The notes beneath the pieces were generated by a model. That model saw only the letters and a program-made list of their open reading frames with translations. It was not told where the DNA came from and did not search any database. Position numbers and translations under genes: made by a program. This document shows positions 3,971 through 48,079 of a stretch of 64,000 bases of DNA, in pieces (the first letter of the stretch is position 1; every line of letters starts with the position of its first letter). The stretch comes from Nitrosopumilus sp. (lineage in GTDB: Archaea > Thermoproteota > Nitrososphaeria > Nitrososphaerales > Nitrosopumilaceae): the NCBI GenBank assembly GCA_965218695.1, contig OZ244651.1, forward strand, positions 352,001 to 416,000, read 5' to 3'.

Positions 3971-4060
3971 AGCGGGGTGGGGAAGTCAGACTCATCAGGG
4001 CTAGGTCATCCCGGCGGGCTCATAACCCGCAAATCAGTAGTTCAAATCTACTCCCCGCTA
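3971..4060 (+). tRNA. Initiator tRNA-Met(CAT) with a 15-nt intron in the D-loop (3990-4004, position 18/19)
   Basis: Acceptor stem AGCGGGG/CCCCGCT with A1-U72; anticodon stem GCGGG/CCCGC around CT-CAT-AA; TTCAAAT T-loop; bulge-helix-bulge GA-AGUC-AG^A-CU..AG-GGCU-AG^G-UC. Confidence 0.93.
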
Positions 4061-24768: not shown

Positions 24769-24801
24769 AAATCATTATCTATAGCTAAGATCAAAAGTTC
24801 G

Positions 24802-24944
24802 TGAATACATGATAACCCTGCCCACCCACCACATGTAGCGGGCTGACCCCTAAATACACATGGTCACAAAGACCTAGTTCGTGAATGAGGCTATCCGAGC
24901 TGCTGTGTTACTGACCATCCGAGCCCTTGGATGTTAGTTACATG
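24802..24944 (+). ncRNA. Orphan IS110 left end with a bridge-RNA-like structure (no recombinase attached)
   Basis: Colinear with the reconstructed IS110 left end (reverse complement of 42854-42881 joined to 41488-41597); conserved CCCC/GGTC-ACAAA-GACC frame; guide AGTTCGTGAAT (24876-24886) equals its own junction (24796-24806). Confidence 0.75.
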
Positions 24945-25270
24945 TCTTGATCCCGTACTTGTACTCAAACAGGTACAGGCCGTAGTCCACGCATTCCATG
25001 GCAAGCGCAATGTCCCTCATGGTTTTGTCCCAACCATGCGTGTGGTTTCGTCCTGCACGTATTAAAGACCCCCTGTAATCATGGCAACAGTTCTTCCAGA
25101 AGCATACCAAGTGCTGGCCGTCACATGGCGGCATCATTTTCTACGTGCCGTGCCTCACGTCCTCCATGGCATGCATGTTTTGCGGCAAGAGGCACGGCCA
25201 ATACCAGATCATTGGATCCGCACGCCCTTCGTTTTATTTGCACGAATTTTGGCGTGTCATCATGAATGGT

Positions 25271-37183: not shown

Positions 37184-38872
37184 ATGGACTTGAGTGACTC
37201 CAATAATTCCAAAGACGCAGAAGAAATTTTATCGGAATTTGATTCCCGAGATTCAATCCCAGAATCAACTACTGAAAAAAAGACAGAACCAACACCGGCC
37301 CCAACAGCCGAACCCGCTCCAGAACCAACAGCCGAACCCGCTCCAGAACCAACAGCCGAACCCGCTCCAGAACCAACAGCCGAACCCGCTCCAGAACCAA
37401 CAGCCGAACCCGCTCCAGAACCAACAGCCGAACCCGCTCCAGAACCAACAGCCGAACCCGCTCCAGAACCAACAGCCGAACCCGCTCCAGAACCAACAGC
37501 CGAACCCGCTCCAGAACCAACAGCCGAACCCGCTCCAGAACCAACAGCCGAACCCGCTCCAGAACCAACAGCCGAACCCGCTCCAGAACCAACAGCCGAA
37601 CCCGCTCCAGAACCAACAGCCGAACCCGCTCCAGAACCAACACCGGCAGTAGCAGCTGAGTCAACTCCCGAACCAGCCGCCGAACCCGCTCCAGAACCAA
37701 CACCGGCAGTAGCAGCTGAGTCAACTCCCGAACCAGCCGCCGAACCCGCTCCAGAACCAACACCGGCAGTAGCAGCTGAGTCAACTCCCGAACCAGCCGC
37801 CGAACCCGCTCCAGAACCAACACCGGCAGTAGCAGCTGAGTCAACTCCCGAACCAGCCGCCGAACCCGCTCCAGAACCAACACCGGCAGTAGCAGCTGAG
37901 TCAACTCCCGAACCAGCCGCCGAACCCGCTCCAGAACCAACACCGGCAGTAGCAGCTGAGTCAACTCCCGAACCAGCCGCCGAACCCGCTCCAGAACCAA
38001 CACCGGCCCCAACAGCCGAACCCGCTCCAGAACCAACACCGGCAGTAGCAGCTGAGTCAACTCCCGAACCAGCCGCCGAACCCGCTCCAGAACCAACACC
38101 GGCAGTAGCAGCTGAGTCAACTCCCGAACCAGCCGCCGAACCCGCTCCAGAACCAACACCGGCCCCAACAGCCGAACCCGCTCCAGAACCAACACCGGCA
38201 GTAGCAGCTGAGTCAACTCCCGAACCAGCCGCCGAACCCGCTCCAGAACCAACACCGGCCCCAACAGCCGAACCCGCTCCAGAACCAACACCGGCAGTAG
38301 CAGCTGAGTCAACTCCCGAACCAGCCGCCGAACCCGCTCCAGAACCAACACCGGCAGTAGCAGCTGAGTCAACTCCCGAACCAGCCGCCGAACCCGCTCC
38401 AGAACCAACACCGGCCCCAACAGCCGAACCCGCTCCAGAACCAACACCGGCAGTAGCAGCTGAGTCAACTCCCGAACCAGCCGCCGAACCCGCTCCAGAA
38501 CCAACACCGGCCCCAACAGCCGAGCCAGCAGTTCCGCCCACCGCAGAATCACAATCCGATTCAACTACGAGTGAAACTTCGGATTCATCTAAAACATCTG
38601 AAAGGCGTGATGTGATTTTTGTGGGCGCAAAACCAATAATGACTTATGTGTCTGCAACCTTGACACAACTTTCCACCAGATCTATGGTAACCATCAAGGC
38701 TCGAGGCAAAAAAATTACACATGCAGTTGATGTGTCCCAAATGATCGTCAAGAGAATGAATTCAGTTGGATACATCATCAAAGATGTGCGAATCGCATCC
38801 GACTCTCTTAAATCCCAAGATGGAAAACTGCGTAACGTATCCACCATGGAAATTGACATATCAAAAGGGTAA
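37184..38872 (+). CDS. Alba-domain nucleic-acid-binding protein with a very long Pro/Glu/Ala/Thr repeat N-terminus
   Basis: C-terminal VIFVGAKPIMTYV...IKARGKKI..AVDV...RNVSTMEI is an Alba fold; no signal peptide. Confidence 0.88.
   Translation: MDLSDSNNSKDAEEILSEFDSRDSIPESTTEKKTEPTPAPTAEPAPEPTAEPAPEPTAEPAPEPTAEPAPEPTAEPAPEPTAEPAPEPTAEPAPEPTAEPAPEPTAEPAPEPTAEPAPEPTAEPAPEPTAEPAPEPTAEPAPEPTAEPAPEPTPAVAAESTPEPAAEPAPEPTPAVAAESTPEPAAEPAPEPTPAVAAESTPEPAAEPAPEPTPAVAAESTPEPAAEPAPEPTPAVAAESTPEPAAEPAPEPTPAVAAESTPEPAAEPAPEPTPAPTAEPAPEPTPAVAAESTPEPAAEPAPEPTPAVAAESTPEPAAEPAPEPTPAPTAEPAPEPTPAVAAESTPEPAAEPAPEPTPAPTAEPAPEPTPAVAAESTPEPAAEPAPEPTPAVAAESTPEPAAEPAPEPTPAPTAEPAPEPTPAVAAESTPEPAAEPAPEPTPAPTAEPAVPPTAESQSDSTTSETSDSSKTSERRDVIFVGAKPIMTYVSATLTQLSTRSMVTIKARGKKITHAVDVSQMIVKRMNSVGYIIKDVRIASDSLKSQDGKLRNVSTMEIDISKG
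37285..38523 (+). repeat. Compound tandem repeat: about 14 x 24 bp, about 6 x 60 bp, then mixed 60/36-bp higher-order units
   Basis: ACAGCCGAACCCGCTCCAGAACCA units; 60-bp period visible as identical sequence lines 37621-37980. Confidence 0.97.
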
Positions 38873-39092: not shown

Positions 39093-40376
39093 TACAGGAC
39101 ATATGTCAAAAACGTTATTCCAAGGAGAGCGGCATATTCTCAAGTAGTTAATTGACAAATTTTCAGATAAAATATGGTAGGAAAGGCTCCGGTGGATTTC
39201 GGTGATCAAGCCATTAGATCATATGAGTAATCGACCACTTTCAACATAACAAAAATACGCCGCAATAGATCCTATGATTAACCCCCCATCACATCGATAA
39301 ATTTAGATCAGGCACGATCGCGTTTCACATCAAATGCCAGACTCACCTGATCAGATCATACGCAAGTTAGAACAGGAAAACAAAAAGCTAAAAAAGATTC
39401 TAAATCAGAAAGACAAAAAGCTGGAGCAGAAAGACAAAAAGCTGGAGCAGAAAGACAAAAAGCTGGAGCAGAAAGACAAAAAGCTGGAGCAGAAAGACGA
39501 GGAGCTGAGCCTTGAGCGCAGCCTGTGGAAGCGCAGGGACGGCGCGTTGAGCAAGGATGCCGGCAAGAGTGAAATGCTGCACCGGATCGAGGTTTTTGAC
39601 GAAATAATCGGCAGCAAGACCAAGATTTACCGGGCCACGCTAAAAGACAAGGAAAAGTTCCAGTTCATGCTGGCGTATGCCAAGGAATACATGAAGCATT
39701 CTGGCCGGATGCCGCTGTTTCGCGACGACGACTCCAGAAGGTCCGATCCCGGAAACCGGTGCAAGCTGCACCTGAGGCACGCCCTGCTCATGGCGCTGAT
39801 GCACAAAAAGGACAACATCACCCAGGGCGTGCTTGGCGCAGTCTTCGGGATAGACCAGGCCGCCGTGTCGCGGTACCTCAAGGTGATCGACGCGATGCTG
39901 GAAGGGACGCTTCCCACGGCAGACAGCGTGTCAGGGGAGATATCTGCAGCCCCCACCAAGGAAGAGTTCAAGAAGATCGTGCCCGGGCCCGACGGGGGCG
40001 AGATATTCGCAGACGGCACGCACTGCCCCGTGCAGCGCCCGTCCGAAAGGACGGTCAGGCGCATGAAATACTCTGGCAAGAAAAAAAAGTTCACCATCTA
40101 TGTTAACCCTCCCCCGGACTTATCCAGTTTTTGCAACCAGCTTGTCACTTTGGGTATGTTTTTTGCCTTCTTAAGCATTACCTGCAAGCAGAATCCTGCC
40201 CGACCGGCAGAAAATACGGCTTTTTGCCCCGCGGTGTGACACGCATAATCCCTTCCGGGGGGTCTGGGGGGCTGGCCCCCCAGCATTCATGTAGAAACAT
40301 CCCATAGTTCCCATAATTTGTGCACAGCATCCGCTAGACTCGGCATTGCCTACTGGCACCACCACCGGTTCCACAC

Positions 40377-41495
40377 CTACTCGTCCTTCATGACTTGTCT
40401 GATCTTGGAGCGATACAGCTTTTCGTTTCTGTCCTCGTACAGGGTGTCTTCTGTCAGCATGTGCCAGATGATAGTCAGCATCTTGTTTGCCACGTGCGTT
40501 ATGGCGACGTGGTGCTTGTGCCTCTTCATGATGCGCGTGTAGTATTCCTTCACCCTTGCGTCATGGAGCACTGCAGCAAGCGCGCACTGGACCATGATCC
40601 AGTTGACCTTCCTGTTTGAGTCCTTTTTCATCCTGCCGTGGTATGACGTGTCGCCTGACTGGTGAAGCGTCGGGCACATGCCGGCCCAGGACACGAACTT
40701 TTTTGGGTTCCCAAACCGTTTGATGTCGTCGATCTCTGCTGCCAGCAACGCTGCAGAAAATACGTTCATCCCAGTCATGCTCAGCAGCAGCTTCGGGTAG
40801 TGGGTGTCGCGGACGTATCCCTTGATCTCGACTTCGGTCTTTTTTATCTCGTCGTTGCAGTGCCGTATCTGCGATATGCAGCCGTCCAGCACGAACCTGT
40901 CCCGAGAATTCTTCATGTCTGCCTCTTCAAGATACTTTAGGGCCTTTCCCCTCCAGATGTGGCGTCCTCCATCCTTTGGATTTATGTCGCATTTGTCTGT
41001 CAGCGTGTGCACAAAGTTGATCACTTTTGTCCGGTCCTGCACCAGGGTTATCTGGTACCTGAGGATCTGCTTCATTCCCCTGGATTCGGCCGAGCCTATG
41101 TGGCAGCTCGAAATCAAGTCGGCTCGCAGCAGGTGGGCAAGCATCCTTGCGTCTATGGTGTCGTTTTTTATGCTGGCCGACGAGATTGCCTTGATCTTGA
41201 ACGGATTGGCAAGCATCAGCGGGATTCCGGCAGATTCAAATGCATCAGCAGTCTTTATCCAGTGGTTTCCTGTGGATTCGCAGACTGCCCTGCACTGACC
41301 GTATGTGGCCTTTGCGTATGCGGCAAACTCTGATGAATCCCGGGACGTGTTGCTGTACGATGACTCTTCCAGGATTGTCCCTTCATGGCTCATCACGCAC
41401 GTCACGCATTTTCTCTTTCCTATGTCGATTCCAATACTCTTTTCTATTTCTTTCACCTCCTTTTTTTTGTGTGGCAGGCCGGAAGCTGCATCCAT
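40377..41495 (-). CDS. IS110 DEDD recombinase (true start probably near 41447-41456)
   Basis: GIDIGK, CESTG, KNDTIDA and QSG motifs all intact. Confidence 0.93.
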   Translation of the reverse strand: MDAASGLPHKKKEVKEIEKSIGIDIGKRKCVTCVMSHEGTILEESSYSNTSRDSSEFAAYAKATYGQCRAVCESTGNHWIKTADAFESAGIPLMLANPFKIKAISSASIKNDTIDARMLAHLLRADLISSCHIGSAESRGMKQILRYQITLVQDRTKVINFVHTLTDKCDINPKDGGRHIWRGKALKYLEEADMKNSRDRFVLDGCISQIRHCNDEIKKTEVEIKGYVRDTHYPKLLLSMTGMNVFSAALLAAEIDDIKRFGNPKKFVSWAGMCPTLHQSGDTSYHGRMKKDSNRKVNWIMVQCALAAVLHDARVKEYYTRIMKRHKHHVAITHVANKMLTIIWHMLTEDTLYEDRNEKLYRSKIRQVMKDE

Positions 41496-41597
41496 CTATC
41501 AGGGCTCGAAGCCCAGTAACACAGCAGCTCGGATCGCCCCATTCAACAACTAGGTCTTTGTGACCAGGTGAATTTAGGGGTCAGCCCGCCACAGGTA
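41480..41597 (-). ncRNA. Putative IS110 bridge RNA (target-binding and donor-binding loops); 5-prime end separated by IS630 and continuing at 42854-42870
   Basis: CCCC-[TAAATTCACCT]-GGTC-ACAAA-GACC-[TAGTTGTTGAAT]-GGGG, then AGCTGC-[TGTGTTACT]-GGGCT-TCG-AGCCC-[TGATAGATGGAT]-GCAGCT; three of the four loop strands clearly match target or donor. Confidence 0.8.
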
Positions 41598-42851
41598 TAC
41601 CAAAAGTGAAAAGTTGATGCGATTGTCACATATTTTACCACATCTAAAGTTATACCAATTTCACGTCCCACAGTCAATGAAGATCAAGACGATGTTGAAA
41701 AGATACGCCGCTGAGACAGACTGCGATACCAAGGACCGCATGATGCTGATCATCAGAGTCAAACGTGATGGAATAACCATGAGGGATTCTGCAAAATCCC
41801 TGGGAAAGTCAGCCTCGTGGGGCTACAAGTGGCACGAGCGCTACCTGGAAGTCGGATTTGACAGGCTGGGAAACATGCCGCGCTCCGGCAGGCCGACCAA
41901 GGCGAGCAAGGCAGACATGAAGAAGATCAGAAAGGCCGCATGCAGGAAACCTGTCTGGACTGGCATGGAGATGCAGCAATACATCCAACAGAAGACCGGA
42001 GTGAAGTACGAACTCGGATATGTGCGCCAGATACTGCGCGGGTGGGGCTATTCCCAAAAGGTTCCCGTAGGAAAACATGCAAGAAGGGCGCCTGACGAGG
42101 AGATCAGGAAATTCCAAAAAGAGATGCCAGAGCTTATAAAAAAAAGAACAGTGAAGGAACAGTCGTAGCGATACAGGACGAGTCCATAGTAATCTCCGAT
42201 GCGCGGCCGCGAAGACGCGGCTACACCAGGAAGGGAATACGGGCGTTTTTCACGTACACCGGCTCACACTCCAAGACGATAATCCATGGACTAATCACCA
42301 CGGACGGCAGGGGCATGTTCCGGCAGTACGATGCGTTTACCAAGGACACCTTTGAGGACTTTCTAAGGCAGGCGATGTACAGGTTCAAGAAGATCTGCCT
42401 GATCATGGACAAGGCCTCCCAGCACAGGGCATCAAACATACGCAAACTGCTTGATGGCACAGACGGCCTGGAGATAATCTTCCTGCCAACTGCGACCCCG
42501 GACCTGAGCGCCATAGAGACGTACTGGAGGGATCTCAAACGGGCAGTGCTTGACGTGCCGTACACCAGCCTGAGCATGCTCCGCGAGGCGATCACCAGGT
42601 ACGCGAGGTACAAAAAACCAAATCTGGTAGTCGAGAATTTTCTGTACAGGGCCATCTAGAACGACATCAAACCACACCGGATCCACGCCGCCTAGCGTGT
42701 GCCATGCACGGCGCATCAGAGCATGCAATGTCTAATGTTCGGGGCGTCTTTTCTCGTCATTTGGGAATTCAACGCACCTCGTAATTTCCAGAGATGGATG
42801 TCGCATCAAAAATTTATGAGCGATTTTGATATGAATTTTTCATTGCTGGTA
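41598..42851 (+). mobile_element. IS630-family element inserted in the IS110 left end
   Basis: TA duplication (41596-41597, 42852-42853); TIRs TACCAAAAGTGAAAAGTT / TACCAGCAATGAAAAATT. Confidence 0.92.
41677..42659 (+). CDS. IS630 transposase in two frames joined by a probable -1 frameshift
   Basis: HTH ORF to 42168; A8G run 42138-42146; the -1 frame continues KNSEGTVVAIQDES...MDKASQH...PDLSAIETYW. Confidence 0.85.
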
Positions 42852-43771
42852 TAGTGGGTGGGTGGGGTTATCATGTATTCAACAACACCAACGTGTACGC
42901 CAACAAAAACGGGGTGATAATCGGCATATCCAAGAGCACCGTCGGGTCAGTCGGCGACATCACGCTTCTCAAGGAACGCCCCATGCCGTTTGGAAGATGG
43001 GAGGAGGCGATGCACGACCCGGATCTGCCCGAGGCACAACGGTGCCACGTCTTTGTCGACCGCGGCTACCAGGGGATCGAAAAACACCTGCCCGGCACGA
43101 CCCCGGAGATCCCGTACAAGAAGAGCAAGAAGGCGCCCCTGACGCCGGAGCAAAGGGAGCACAACCACAGGATCCACTCCGAGCGCGTGCTAGTCGAGCA
43201 CACCATAGGCAGGCTCAAGCGCTACGCGCGTCTTTCCGACCCGTACGACGGAACCGCGGCGCAGTTCAACCGGGAGTTCAACGTGATCACAGGGCTGGTG
43301 AACCTGGACCTTTTGTGGGACTACGTGCAAAAGGGCCCGCCGCCACCGGGCCGGTGGAGGATGCAGGTAGACTGGGACAAAGCCTGCTCCCGGGAACCTG
43401 TCAAGTAGAATTCAGGGCACATCGAGGTGCTACAGGACTGCGCACGCCATCTTGGATTTTGTAATAAATTAATTCGCCACGCACTCGGCATAGTTGGCAT
43501 TTAGTCGTATTTTTCTGATTTTATGGCCCAAACCGGCAAGATGGGAGGGATTACTCATGAGTTCTATTAGAATTTACCAGAATCGAAGCCATCCGGGCGC
43601 GCGTCGGCCTCTCGCTCCATGGCACGATGCACGGGCGCTGGTTATTAATTGACATTTAATCAGATTTAAAATACCGATCAGCTACTTTTGTAGATTAAAT
43701 CATTCGGAAAGATCATCGGACCGCATAATGACGGATTGTCTGTTCTATTCGAGAGTATTTTGTATCAGACT

Positions 43772-46595: not shown

Positions 46596-48079
46596 AGAAG
46601 ATATGCGTAATCCGGAACTTTTTCAAACTCCGCGCTGACATGTTAGCCCTGCTGTCAAAAATTTATGATCCATCCAATTAAAACCAGAATATGCCGGTTC
46701 ATACTGTTGTCGAATCAGGAAACAAGTGACCTGCAAAAAGAGAACAAGACTCTCAGAGACATGATCAAGCGCCAGGACGCAGCTGCCAGGCACGAGCAAA
46801 GCCTGTGGGGTACGCGAGACGGCTCCGAGTCTGGAGCCGCAGGGGAGCCCGCCCTGCTGCATCGCGTGGAGGTCTTTGATGAGATCATCAGAGTCGAGAA
46901 AAATCTTCATGACGCGACGCTGAAGTGCAGGGAACAGTTCCAATACATGCTTGACAGGGCCGAGGCATGGATAAGGCAAAGCGGCAAATCCCCGCTCTTC
47001 AGGAACGACGAGACGAGGGCGTCGGATCCCGGGAACCGCTGCAAGCTGTACCCAAGGCACGCGCTGCTCATGGCGCTGATGTACAAAAAGGGCAACCCCA
47101 CGCAGGGCGCGCTTGCGGCATTCTTTGGAATAGACCAGGCAACCGTGTCCCGGTATATCGATGTGCTAGACGGGGTGCTTGAGGCGGCGCTGCCCACTGC
47201 TGCCAACATATCAAAGGAGATAGCAGGCACGGAGACAAAAGAGGATCTCAAAAAAATAATTTCCGGGCCGGACGGGGGCATCATGATGATCGACGGCACG
47301 CACTGCCCCATACAGAGGCCGGACGAAAAACAGATGAGGAGCATGATGTATTCTGGCAAGAAGAAGAAATTCACGCTCAACACCACCGTGTGCATAAACG
47401 AAAACGGGGTGATAGTCGCCATATCCGGCAGCACCGTGGGATCCGTCCACGACATCACGCTGCTCAGGGAGAGCCCGCTGCCATTTGGAAAATGGTGGGA
47501 CCGCATGTGCGACGAGAACACCCCCGAAGAGGACAGGATCCACACCCTTACTGACCGCGGCTACAAGGGAATCGCAAAGGATCTGCCCGGAACAAACACC
47601 CTGCAGCCGCACAAGAAGACCAAAAACCACAAGCGCTTTACAAAGGAGGAAAAGGAGCACAACCACGCCATCAACTCGGCCAGGGTAAAGGTAGAGCACT
47701 CCATCGGCAGGCTGAAGCGGTACGGCCGGCTTACCGCGCCATACAAGGGAAAGATTGGCGACTTTAACAGGGAATTTAACATAATAACCGGACTCGTAAA
47801 CCTGGACCTCCTGTGGAACCAGATGAAGAAAGGACCTCCTTCAGGTAGCACGCTGGGGCCGGTAATAAACTGGGAAGAGGCAAACGTCCCCGGCAGCGCC
47901 GTTTCAAACAATTAATTCCGTGCACATCGTGGTGCTGCAAGGTTGCGCACGTTATTTTGTATTTCTGGCAGGACAGGATCCCCACATGGCTAACATGGCG
48001 ATAATTAAATTAGAATTTTTAATATTTTCTGGTTTTTCTGGTTTAACCCAACGAAATGGAGGGATTACGCATGGCTTCT
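46596..48079 (+). mobile_element. IS5/ISL2-like element, copy B
   Basis: TIRs as in copy A; TSD AAT (46593-46595, 48080-48082). Confidence 0.92.
46665..47915 (+). CDS. IS5/ISL2-like transposase
   Basis: Nearly identical to 2349-3662 but 21 aa shorter in the coiled coil. Confidence 0.92.
   Translation: MIHPIKTRICRFILLSNQETSDLQKENKTLRDMIKRQDAAARHEQSLWGTRDGSESGAAGEPALLHRVEVFDEIIRVEKNLHDATLKCREQFQYMLDRAEAWIRQSGKSPLFRNDETRASDPGNRCKLYPRHALLMALMYKKGNPTQGALAAFFGIDQATVSRYIDVLDGVLEAALPTAANISKEIAGTETKEDLKKIISGPDGGIMMIDGTHCPIQRPDEKQMRSMMYSGKKKKFTLNTTVCINENGVIVAISGSTVGSVHDITLLRESPLPFGKWWDRMCDENTPEEDRIHTLTDRGYKGIAKDLPGTNTLQPHKKTKNHKRFTKEEKEHNHAINSARVKVEHSIGRLKRYGRLTAPYKGKIGDFNREFNIITGLVNLDLLWNQMKKGPPSGSTLGPVINWEEANVPGSAVSNN

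Follow-up and report, generated by a model that had tools for sequence, protein, structure and literature searches.

Both guide segments of a predicted small RNA from an archaeal IS110-family element match a site inside the transposase gene of another, multicopy transposon

Introduction

One locus in a 64,000-nucleotide stretch of Nitrosopumilus DNA (the whole stretch that was analysed, called the window here) raises the question of how a transposon comes to lie inside the transposase gene of another transposon. The inserted element belongs to the IS110 family, the interrupted gene is that of a multicopy IS5-like element, and the genome of the window is crowded with insertion sequences. A sequence-only reading of the locus had proposed that an RNA guide was aimed at a conserved motif of the IS5-like transposase gene, and that the insertion suppressed a competitor. 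Two points are therefore at issue, namely whether an RNA encoded by the element specified the site, and whether the site was selected for its effect on the other transposon.

According to Durrant et al. 2024 (PMC11208160), elements of the IS621/IS110 group encode a non-coding bridge RNA in their left end, ahead of the gene, and this RNA has one loop for the target and another for the donor. The loops are described there as pairing with opposite strands flanking a 2-nt core that is itself part of the guide, with repeated DNA as the preferred target. The same source gives the IS110 group a left end longer than the right and a subterminal repeat of only 2-3 bp, and the IS1111 group subterminal inverted repeats of 7-17 bp and a long right end (PMC11208160). 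In IS1111-type elements such as ISEc11, ISPa11 and ISKpn4, the seekRNA is reported to lie downstream of the gene, with the top-strand complement coming first (Siddiquee et al. 2024, PMC11187229). REP sequences and attC sites are among the targets that these two papers name for the family (PMC11208160, PMC11187229), and, to judge by paper titles, the inverted repeats of Tn21-type transposons and IS1384 are published targets as well. IS110-family targeting of other mobile elements is already in print. One survey lists 662 archaeal IS110 recombinases in its catalogue (bioRxiv 10.1101/2024.06.21.599552).

The analysis reported here gives a probability of roughly 0.8 to the reading that this archaeal IS110-family element chooses its insertion site by a bridge-RNA-like RNA encoded just upstream of its DEDD recombinase gene.

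Results

The interrupted gene encodes an IS5-like transposase of the DDE_Tnp_4 type. Its N-terminal part, including the CA core, lies at 39334..40096 on the + strand, as judged from the list of open reading frames, an HTH_Tnp_4 match and the joined frame KKKKFTNN, and its C-terminal part lies at 42882..43408 (+). Joining the two flanks gives a single frame of 429 codons (...MKYSGKKKKFTNNTNVYANKNGV), with the insertion falling between the KKKKFT and NN codons and splitting the DDE_Tnp_4 domain. An uninterrupted IS5-like paralogue within the window carries PF13359.

The IS110-family element occupies 40097..42879 on the - strand, as delimited by BLAST against the genome and by comparison with a copy whose left end is intact. 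With a slash at the border of the inserted sequence, the left junction reads ...AAGTTCAC-CA/TCTATGTT... and the right junction ...CATGTATT-CA/ACAACACC. The dinucleotide CA (TG in the orientation of the element) is the sole sequence common to both junctions, with copies at 40095..40096 and 42880-42881, and comparison within the genome found one CA at the insertion point of empty IS5-like paralogues. The left half-site AAGTTCAC (40087-40094) adjoins this core, and the right half-site ACAACACC is 42882-42889. Contigs from 4 runs on 39300-43500 give no evidence of excision: the joint 40094->42880 equals the empty IS5-like paralogues, and the joint 41595->42852 equals a copy that is free of the nested insert.

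The IS110 span of 2783 bp consists of 1527 bp of its own sequence and a nested IS630-like element at 41598..42851 (+), flanked by a duplicated TA (41596-41597 and 42852-42853). The terminal inverted repeats of the nested element are 41596-41618 and 42831-42853, and its transposase is in two frames (41614-42168 and 42315-42659). The insert parts the first 26 nt of the IS110 left end (AATACATGATAACCCC..., 42854..42879, -) from the RNA gene described below. A second genomic copy at C1:2048000-2050749 has no IS630-like insert and supplies the intact left end. The right end of the element is non-coding and 280 nt long (40097..40376, -), ending ...GGGTTAACATAGA, compared with about 130-170 nt for the left end. 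Both ends carry an arm of an imperfect subterminal inverted repeat of about 14 bp (40101-40114 and 42860-42873), in which 11 of 14 positions match and the arms are offset by 2 nt.

The DEDD recombinase gene occupies 40377..41453 (-) and matches PF01548 (E 3.4e-24) and PF02371 (E 1.4e-22). It scores 226.9 bits, against a cut-off of 140, with the model NF033542 'IS110 family RNA-guided transposase', and the GIDIGK motif with which the domain begins is recognisable by eye. The frame has 372 codons and is open up to an ATG at 41495, though the likely start is a GTG that follows a GGAGG near 41453. The PDB match was the IS621 transposase with only distant similarity (E 9.4e-13), and plasmid-borne matches, which are about 33% identical, bear no finer label than 'IS110 family transposase'. 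The insertion is site-specific with a short shared core, there are no ordinary inverted repeats at the very tips, and 33 of 34 parsed relatives have a TG core. Of the features by which the IS110 family is recognised, the element has the PF01548 and PF02371 domains, a core common to donor and target, a predicted two-loop RNA and covariation of its guides.

Upstream of the recombinase gene, in the left end, a bridge-RNA-like non-coding RNA of about 117 nt is predicted at 41475..41591 (-). The prediction comes from an alignment running from the left tip to the recombinase start in 13 elements (8 in this genome, the other 5 elsewhere in the genus or order), with relatives reaching down to 40% protein identity, and from the hits of R1, a covariance model built from that alignment. 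RNAalifold places an outer stem around two loops with internal hairpins, one for target binding and one for donor binding. The alignment contains 27 pairs, 13 of them with compensatory changes on both sides, and 94.3% of the cells are paired compared with 28-53% when the partners are slid by 1-3 columns. The observed covariation was reached in 0 of 500 column shuffles. The fold of the single sequence agrees with that of the alignment, and its energy is unremarkable (z = -1.69). Rfam has no family for the RNA, whether the RNA region was searched at E up to 1 or the whole window at gathering scores. In this genome R1 picks out 16 strong copies. Among 151 genomes sampled from the class, it gives more than 100 hits, spread over 21 genomes (including the unpublished genome G164) that belong to 12 of 48 genera. 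By analogy with the characterised members of the family, the RNA would be produced, bound by the recombinase and used in transposition through a circle; a search for RNA runs containing the sequence returned none.

In element orientation, the target loop reads CCCC-U-AAAUUCAC-CU-GG...hairpin...CCU-AGUUGUUG-AAUGGGG. The 5' target guide, AAAUUCAC(C) at 41567..41575 (-), reads in the same sense as the IS5-like coding strand, at AA[A/G]TTCAC-C. The 3' target guide, AGUUGUUG at 41544..41551 (-), is complementary to CA-ACAAC(T), with its last two bases, UG, corresponding to the core. Both guide segments of the predicted RNA thus match the site inside the IS5-like transposase gene. The sequence-only reading had named AAATTCAC, the reverse complement of window 41568-41575, as a guide. 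This is borne out, since AAATTCAC is part of the 5' target guide of a bridge-RNA-like molecule backed by compensatory changes in its structure and by guide-flank covariation across 34 elements. The matches counted in that reading are also correct, with 7 of 8 bases at the occupied site and 8 of 8 at the other two IS5-like copies in the window, both of which are uninterrupted. Both belong to another subfamily; one carries AAATTCAC-GC-TCAAC at the same codons (47367..47381, +), and the other, at ~2890 (-), carries AAATTCAC-GC-TCAACACC, as at 47367. The second guide, AGUUGUUG, which covers the other half-site and the core, had gone unnamed, and the pairing then proposed is one base off the register of the sister elements.

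The donor-binding loop was placed at 41493..41523 (-) by comparing guides and ends with those of relatives. Its 5' side, UGUGUU(AC) at 41516-41523, roughly complements the first six bases of the element, and its 3' side, UGAUAGAUG at 41493-41501, has the same sense as the last bases of the element plus the core. The donor guide changes together with the right end (ATAGA-TG versus ATAGG-TG), its 3' side reading ...AGGUG in two relatives with the known right end ...ATAGG. Among relatives, the 5' side varies in step with the opening six bases of the left end. Both relations were judged by eye, with no statistic behind them. The 5' side is unpaired with the core, having AC or AG in place of the required CA.

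The 3' target guide has the same sense as the left-end flank plus the TG core, and this relation was tested in the 34 elements that could be parsed out of 37 (27 non-redundant pairs; 3 were unparsed), 5 further loci having been excluded beforehand because their anchor was missing or misplaced. On average, 4.52 of the 6 bases before the core agree with the left flank, compared with 1.92 +/- 0.23 in shuffled pairings, and the observed mean was reached in 0 of 10,000 shuffles. The 5' guide is the reverse complement of the core plus the right-end flank, and it matches 6-10 of 10 bases in 9 pairs of a sister element and its site. In all sister elements the two bases before UGG are CA, the core complement, and the preceding eight pair with the flank. 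The window type has CC in place of the conserved CA (41567-41577). Its 5' guide matches only 3 of 10 positions in the sister register, but a shift of one base raises this to 8 of 10 for the occupied sites and to 9 of 10 for the best of the empty ones. The junctions of the window type are ordinary, with TG on both sides. Both the shift and the CC count against an RNA-guided choice of this site.

These observations also bear on a different view of the site, in which the AAATTCAC match is incidental, the 5' guide is out of register and the site is chosen by the 3' guide and core or by protein-DNA contacts. The poor match in the sister register is what that view would expect, as is the AC or AG on the 5' side of the donor loop where core pairing needs CA. 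However, a contiguous 9-base match, AAAUUCACC, abuts the core, which by our reckoning is far beyond chance (about 4^-9 per offset), and the 5' guide tracks the flank in the 9 sister pairs. In addition, no target that fits the usual guide register with 2 or fewer mismatches was found in the genome. An incidental match is therefore considered highly improbable. When the genome was scanned for the predicted guide site with CA fixed, there were 0 sites at 0-1 mismatch, and at 2 mismatches three empty sites, namely two host-type copies and one unrelated site.

The potential targets in the genome were counted using tblastn with 105 residues around the motif. This returned 61 rows, of which 41 represent 38 IS5-like copies in five subfamilies and the other 20 represent more distant families. 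The host-type subfamily has 7 copies with the site AA[A/G]TTCAC-CA-A[C/T]AA[C/T]A, and 3 of them are occupied. None of the 31 copies of the other subfamilies is occupied; these are a second subfamily of 17 copies (AAATTCAC-GC-TCAACA), a third of 6 (AAGTTCAC-CC-TCAATA), a fourth of 7 (GC[A/G]CACAC-GT-ACAACA) and a single copy with CGCTTTAC-CT-ACAACA. The occupied copies are those in the window and at C1:2048000 and a truncated remnant at C1:630373. The aim originally ascribed to the guide, a site within a multicopy IS5-like transposase gene at the KFT-NN codons, agrees with this census. Elements with the same guide do not lie mostly in sequence outside insertion sequences: 3 of 3 are in the same IS5-like site, and none was found elsewhere. 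All three are themselves damaged, being interrupted or truncated. Exact scans of public genome and metagenome collections, which possibly do not include the window's own genome, found neither the guide within its scaffold, GACCCCTAAATTCACNTGGTC, nor the left junction, GTTRTTGAATACATGATAACC (0 hits each).

The host-type copies that are empty lie at C1:1020805, 2369363, 1638624 and 1806018; two have AAATTCAC-CA-ATAACA and two AAGTTCAC-CA-ACAATA. With G-U pairs allowed, their match to both guides equals or exceeds that of the occupied copies, and all four retain open frames of 424-584 aa. The 5' half-site is also present in 23 copies of two other subfamilies (17 exact and 6 with one G/A difference). 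Since copies with a perfect 5' half-site stay empty, insertion needs the core and the right half too. The sequence-only reading had held that the unoccupied copies with 8 of 8 matches differ at the core, and so they do, but the 17 such copies differ in the whole right half-site as well. Its expectation that unoccupied copies lack the CA core fails for the four host-subfamily copies, which have CA and good matches to both guides and yet are empty. For both reasons the proposal that core variants escape finds no support in the form in which it was made.

The census is equally relevant to the idea that the guide was selected to disable a competing transposon through a conserved catalytic motif, from which the competitor could not escape. 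The insertion does split the DDE_Tnp_4 domain, the 5' half-site does occur in the 23 copies just mentioned, and further elements of the clade have likewise settled in other insertion sequences of this genome. The full site, however, is present in only 7 copies, and the IS5-like family is not silenced, since the four empty ones keep their open frames. Suppression of a competitor, as first stated, is therefore not supported, and like the proposed safe havens it is hypothetical. The target is also not unusually conserved. Across the five IS5-like subfamilies, 5 of the 16 bases of the target are invariant, a level reached by 669 of 1464 windows; nothing here therefore points to selection of the guide for a stretch of maximal conservation. 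Sister elements, moreover, enter terminal repeats (see below), where the transposase gene need not be disabled. Selection for disabling a competitor is thus regarded as unlikely.

A shared site need not reflect targeting if one chance insertion was later spread by transposition of the host IS, by segmental duplication or by gene conversion, and two of the three occupied copies do show signs of such a history. The full copies of the window-type element in the window and at C1:2048000 have 100% identity over 1417 bp. Their host copies are 91.4% and 96.1% identical on the two sides (about 630-690 nt), but within this there is a single mismatch from -148 to +155 of the junction, and near the junction the two hosts have common variants that are absent from the empty copies. 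These two copies probably stem from one insertion event that was moved by conversion or duplication, and because of their near-identical flanks the events are counted as at least two and not as three. The remnant at C1:630373 does not fit a single insertion. Its 74 nt of IS110 sequence are identical to the window type, whereas its right half-site differs (ATAAC) and there are 4 differences in the nearest 32 flank bases; its host copy is 91% identical to one pair of empty copies and 87% to that of the window. An identical IS110 end beside a different right half-site and flank marks C1:630373 as an independent event. The window-type element has thus landed in the same IS5-like transposase-gene site, at the same bond, in at least two independent insertions. 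Both guides match the site, guide-flank matches run throughout the family and sister elements recur in other insertion sequences at the sites predicted for them, all of which makes the spread of one chance insertion a poor explanation and an improbable one.

The clade has 17 copies with a left end in this genome, and 10 of these lie inside other insertion sequences. Three of the 10 are of the window type. Four sister copies lie 8-10 bp inside the terminal inverted repeats (GC[C/G]TGT-TG-CATAATT) of a 1.13-kb IS5-family element, which scores 197 bits with NF033579 against a cut-off of 140; two of the four, identical and facing outward, sit at C1:239034-243188 in the terminal inverted repeats at either end of a single 1.1-kb IS5-family element. 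Two further sister copies are at the tip of another DDE_Tnp_1 element, an arrangement that is also seen in a related genome, and one 45%-identical relative is within an IS630-like gene. Of six further copies examined, one is 28 bp outside a repeated element and five have a non-repeated left flank. Empty sites for sister elements were found 8-10 nt inside the ends of insertion sequences.

In other genomes of the class, an IS5-family gene was found in 1 of 28 left flanks and another IS110 gene in 1 of 28, in a test that detects only homologues of eight query proteins from this genome (IS5-like, IS5-family and IS630 transposases among them). At 1 in 28 flanks elsewhere, homing into other insertion sequences is a feature of some lineages in an IS-rich genome and not of the whole clade.

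Several further observations concern members of the clade and their surroundings. The window itself contains a left-end fragment of a sister IS110 element with a different guide pair (24803..24963, +). The left half-site AAAGTTCG-TG is common to four elements from three genomes (L032, L052, window 24791-24802 and C1:912813); their 5' guides differ, and their flanks are otherwise unrelated apart from TATA-like stretches about 20 nt upstream. One relative whose recombinase is 49% identical (L003, G014:C1, ~1820470-1821970) lies directly after three 30-nt direct repeats with a spacing of 35-37 nt, which look like a CRISPR array, and the flank past its presumed right end misfits its 5' guide.

The IS110 copies are also hit by other elements. 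The left end of the window type was struck twice by IS630-like elements (41596-42853 in the window and C1:630445-631703). The hit in the window is at a TA 26 nt from the IS110 tip, and that in the C1:630373 remnant lies 47 nt further inward, at a CTAG, and was made by an IS630-like relative with 87% identity in opposite orientation. A 1.2-kb IS5-family element, which has about 27 copies at mostly unrelated sites, is at the same right-end position in two IS110 copies that share only 88% identity (C1:2048095-2049295 and C1:194247-195447); independent hits or exchange between the copies could account for this. At C1:446860-448260 (L024), the terminus of another IS630-like copy is found 14 nt past the right end of the IS110 relative that lies within the IS630-like gene, adding another level of nesting.

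Discussion

The data presented here suggest the following course of events for the window-type element. The 5' segment of the target loop, AAAUUCAC(C), would pair with the strand complementary to AA[A/G]TTCAC-C, and the 3' segment, (A)GUUGUUG, with CA-A[C/T]AA[C/T]. Together the two guides would specify about 16 bp, a site present only in one IS5-like (DDE_Tnp_4) subfamily, at the KKKKFT-NN codons just past the region of the first catalytic Asp. The segments of the donor loop would match the two ends of the element itself, whose junction in a circle intermediate would read ...CATAGA-TG-AATACATG..., and recombination at the common TG/CA core would then insert the element and split the transposase gene. 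RNA-guided homing into a multicopy transposon is well supported. Why such a target is used is most likely a matter of lineage sorting, in which guide variants that hit harmless, dispensable repeats persist and multiply. Inactivation of the host IS is regarded as a side effect. Neither a new mechanism nor a transposon arms race is established by these data.

The case is a new example or variant of a habit already known for the IS110 family and not a new kind of system. Like IS621, the window element has a DEDD recombinase with PF01548 and PF02371, an RNA upstream of it in the left end, and target and donor loops that would each pair with opposite strands across a 2-nt core; the core is part of the guide, and the target is repeated DNA. 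However, the polarity is reversed compared with IS621, in that the 5' sides pair with the right-end flank in the target loop and with the element's own left end in the donor loop. The core of IS621 is CT, unlike the TG of the window element. The outer stem that encloses both loops is another difference from IS621, as are the lack of an Rfam family for the RNA and the distance of the recombinase (E 9.4e-13).

Unlike the IS110 group, the element has a right end (280 nt) longer than its left end (about 130-170 nt) and the imperfect subterminal inverted repeat of about 14 bp. The subterminal inverted repeats (11 of 14) and the longer right end are instead as in IS1111, and so is the order of the segments in the RNA, with the top-strand complement before the bottom-strand complement. 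In contrast to IS1111, the RNA is encoded upstream of the gene, in the left end. The clade of the window element thus mixes layout features of IS110 and IS1111, and this grouping is by layout and not by tree. With regard to targets, the sister elements in the terminal repeats of two IS5-family elements resemble published elements that target another mobile element, whereas the window site is within transposase coding sequence, at a motif of the catalytic domain, and in an archaeal host. The literature searched contained no account of such an RNA layout and no IS110 element aimed at a DDE_Tnp_4 coding motif, although the supplementary tables of the main papers may include related elements. What is new is the archaeal RNA family absent from Rfam, the mixture of IS110 and IS1111 features and the one-base shift of the guide register.

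A broader reading can be put forward only tentatively. One IS110 clade could have radiated into guide variants that home into different resident transposons, with the IS110 copies hit in turn by IS630-like and IS5-family elements, which would amount to an RNA-programmed network of transposons. The clade would then be an intermediate between the IS110 and IS1111 layouts, and its recombinase would accept a 5' guide displaced by one base, so that the single substitution of CA to CC could retarget the element. This wider scheme is possible but rather doubtful.

The locus offers a natural case in which the reprogramming of bridge-RNA guides within one genome can be read from sequence alone. It adds to the known bridge and seek RNAs an archaeal RNA family in which the layouts of the two groups are mixed. 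The one-base register shift, if functional, bears on the rules of guide design for bridge recombinases, and the nested pattern illustrates how site-specific elements can multiply in a small genome while host genes are spared.

The genome in which the window lies is archaeal, its SSU rRNA scoring 1467.9 bits with the archaeal model and 1099.1 bits with the bacterial one. A tRNA-like gene at 3971-4060, read by ARAGORN with a four-base anticodon loop and scoring 29.9 bits against 29 with the Rfam tRNA model, may be an intron-bearing archaeal tRNA. A 562-codon frame at 37184-38872 is mostly taken up by nearly perfect tandem repeats (30 and about 60 nt per unit) with a high content of Pro, Glu, Ala and Thr; the C-terminal part that comes after them is non-repetitive.
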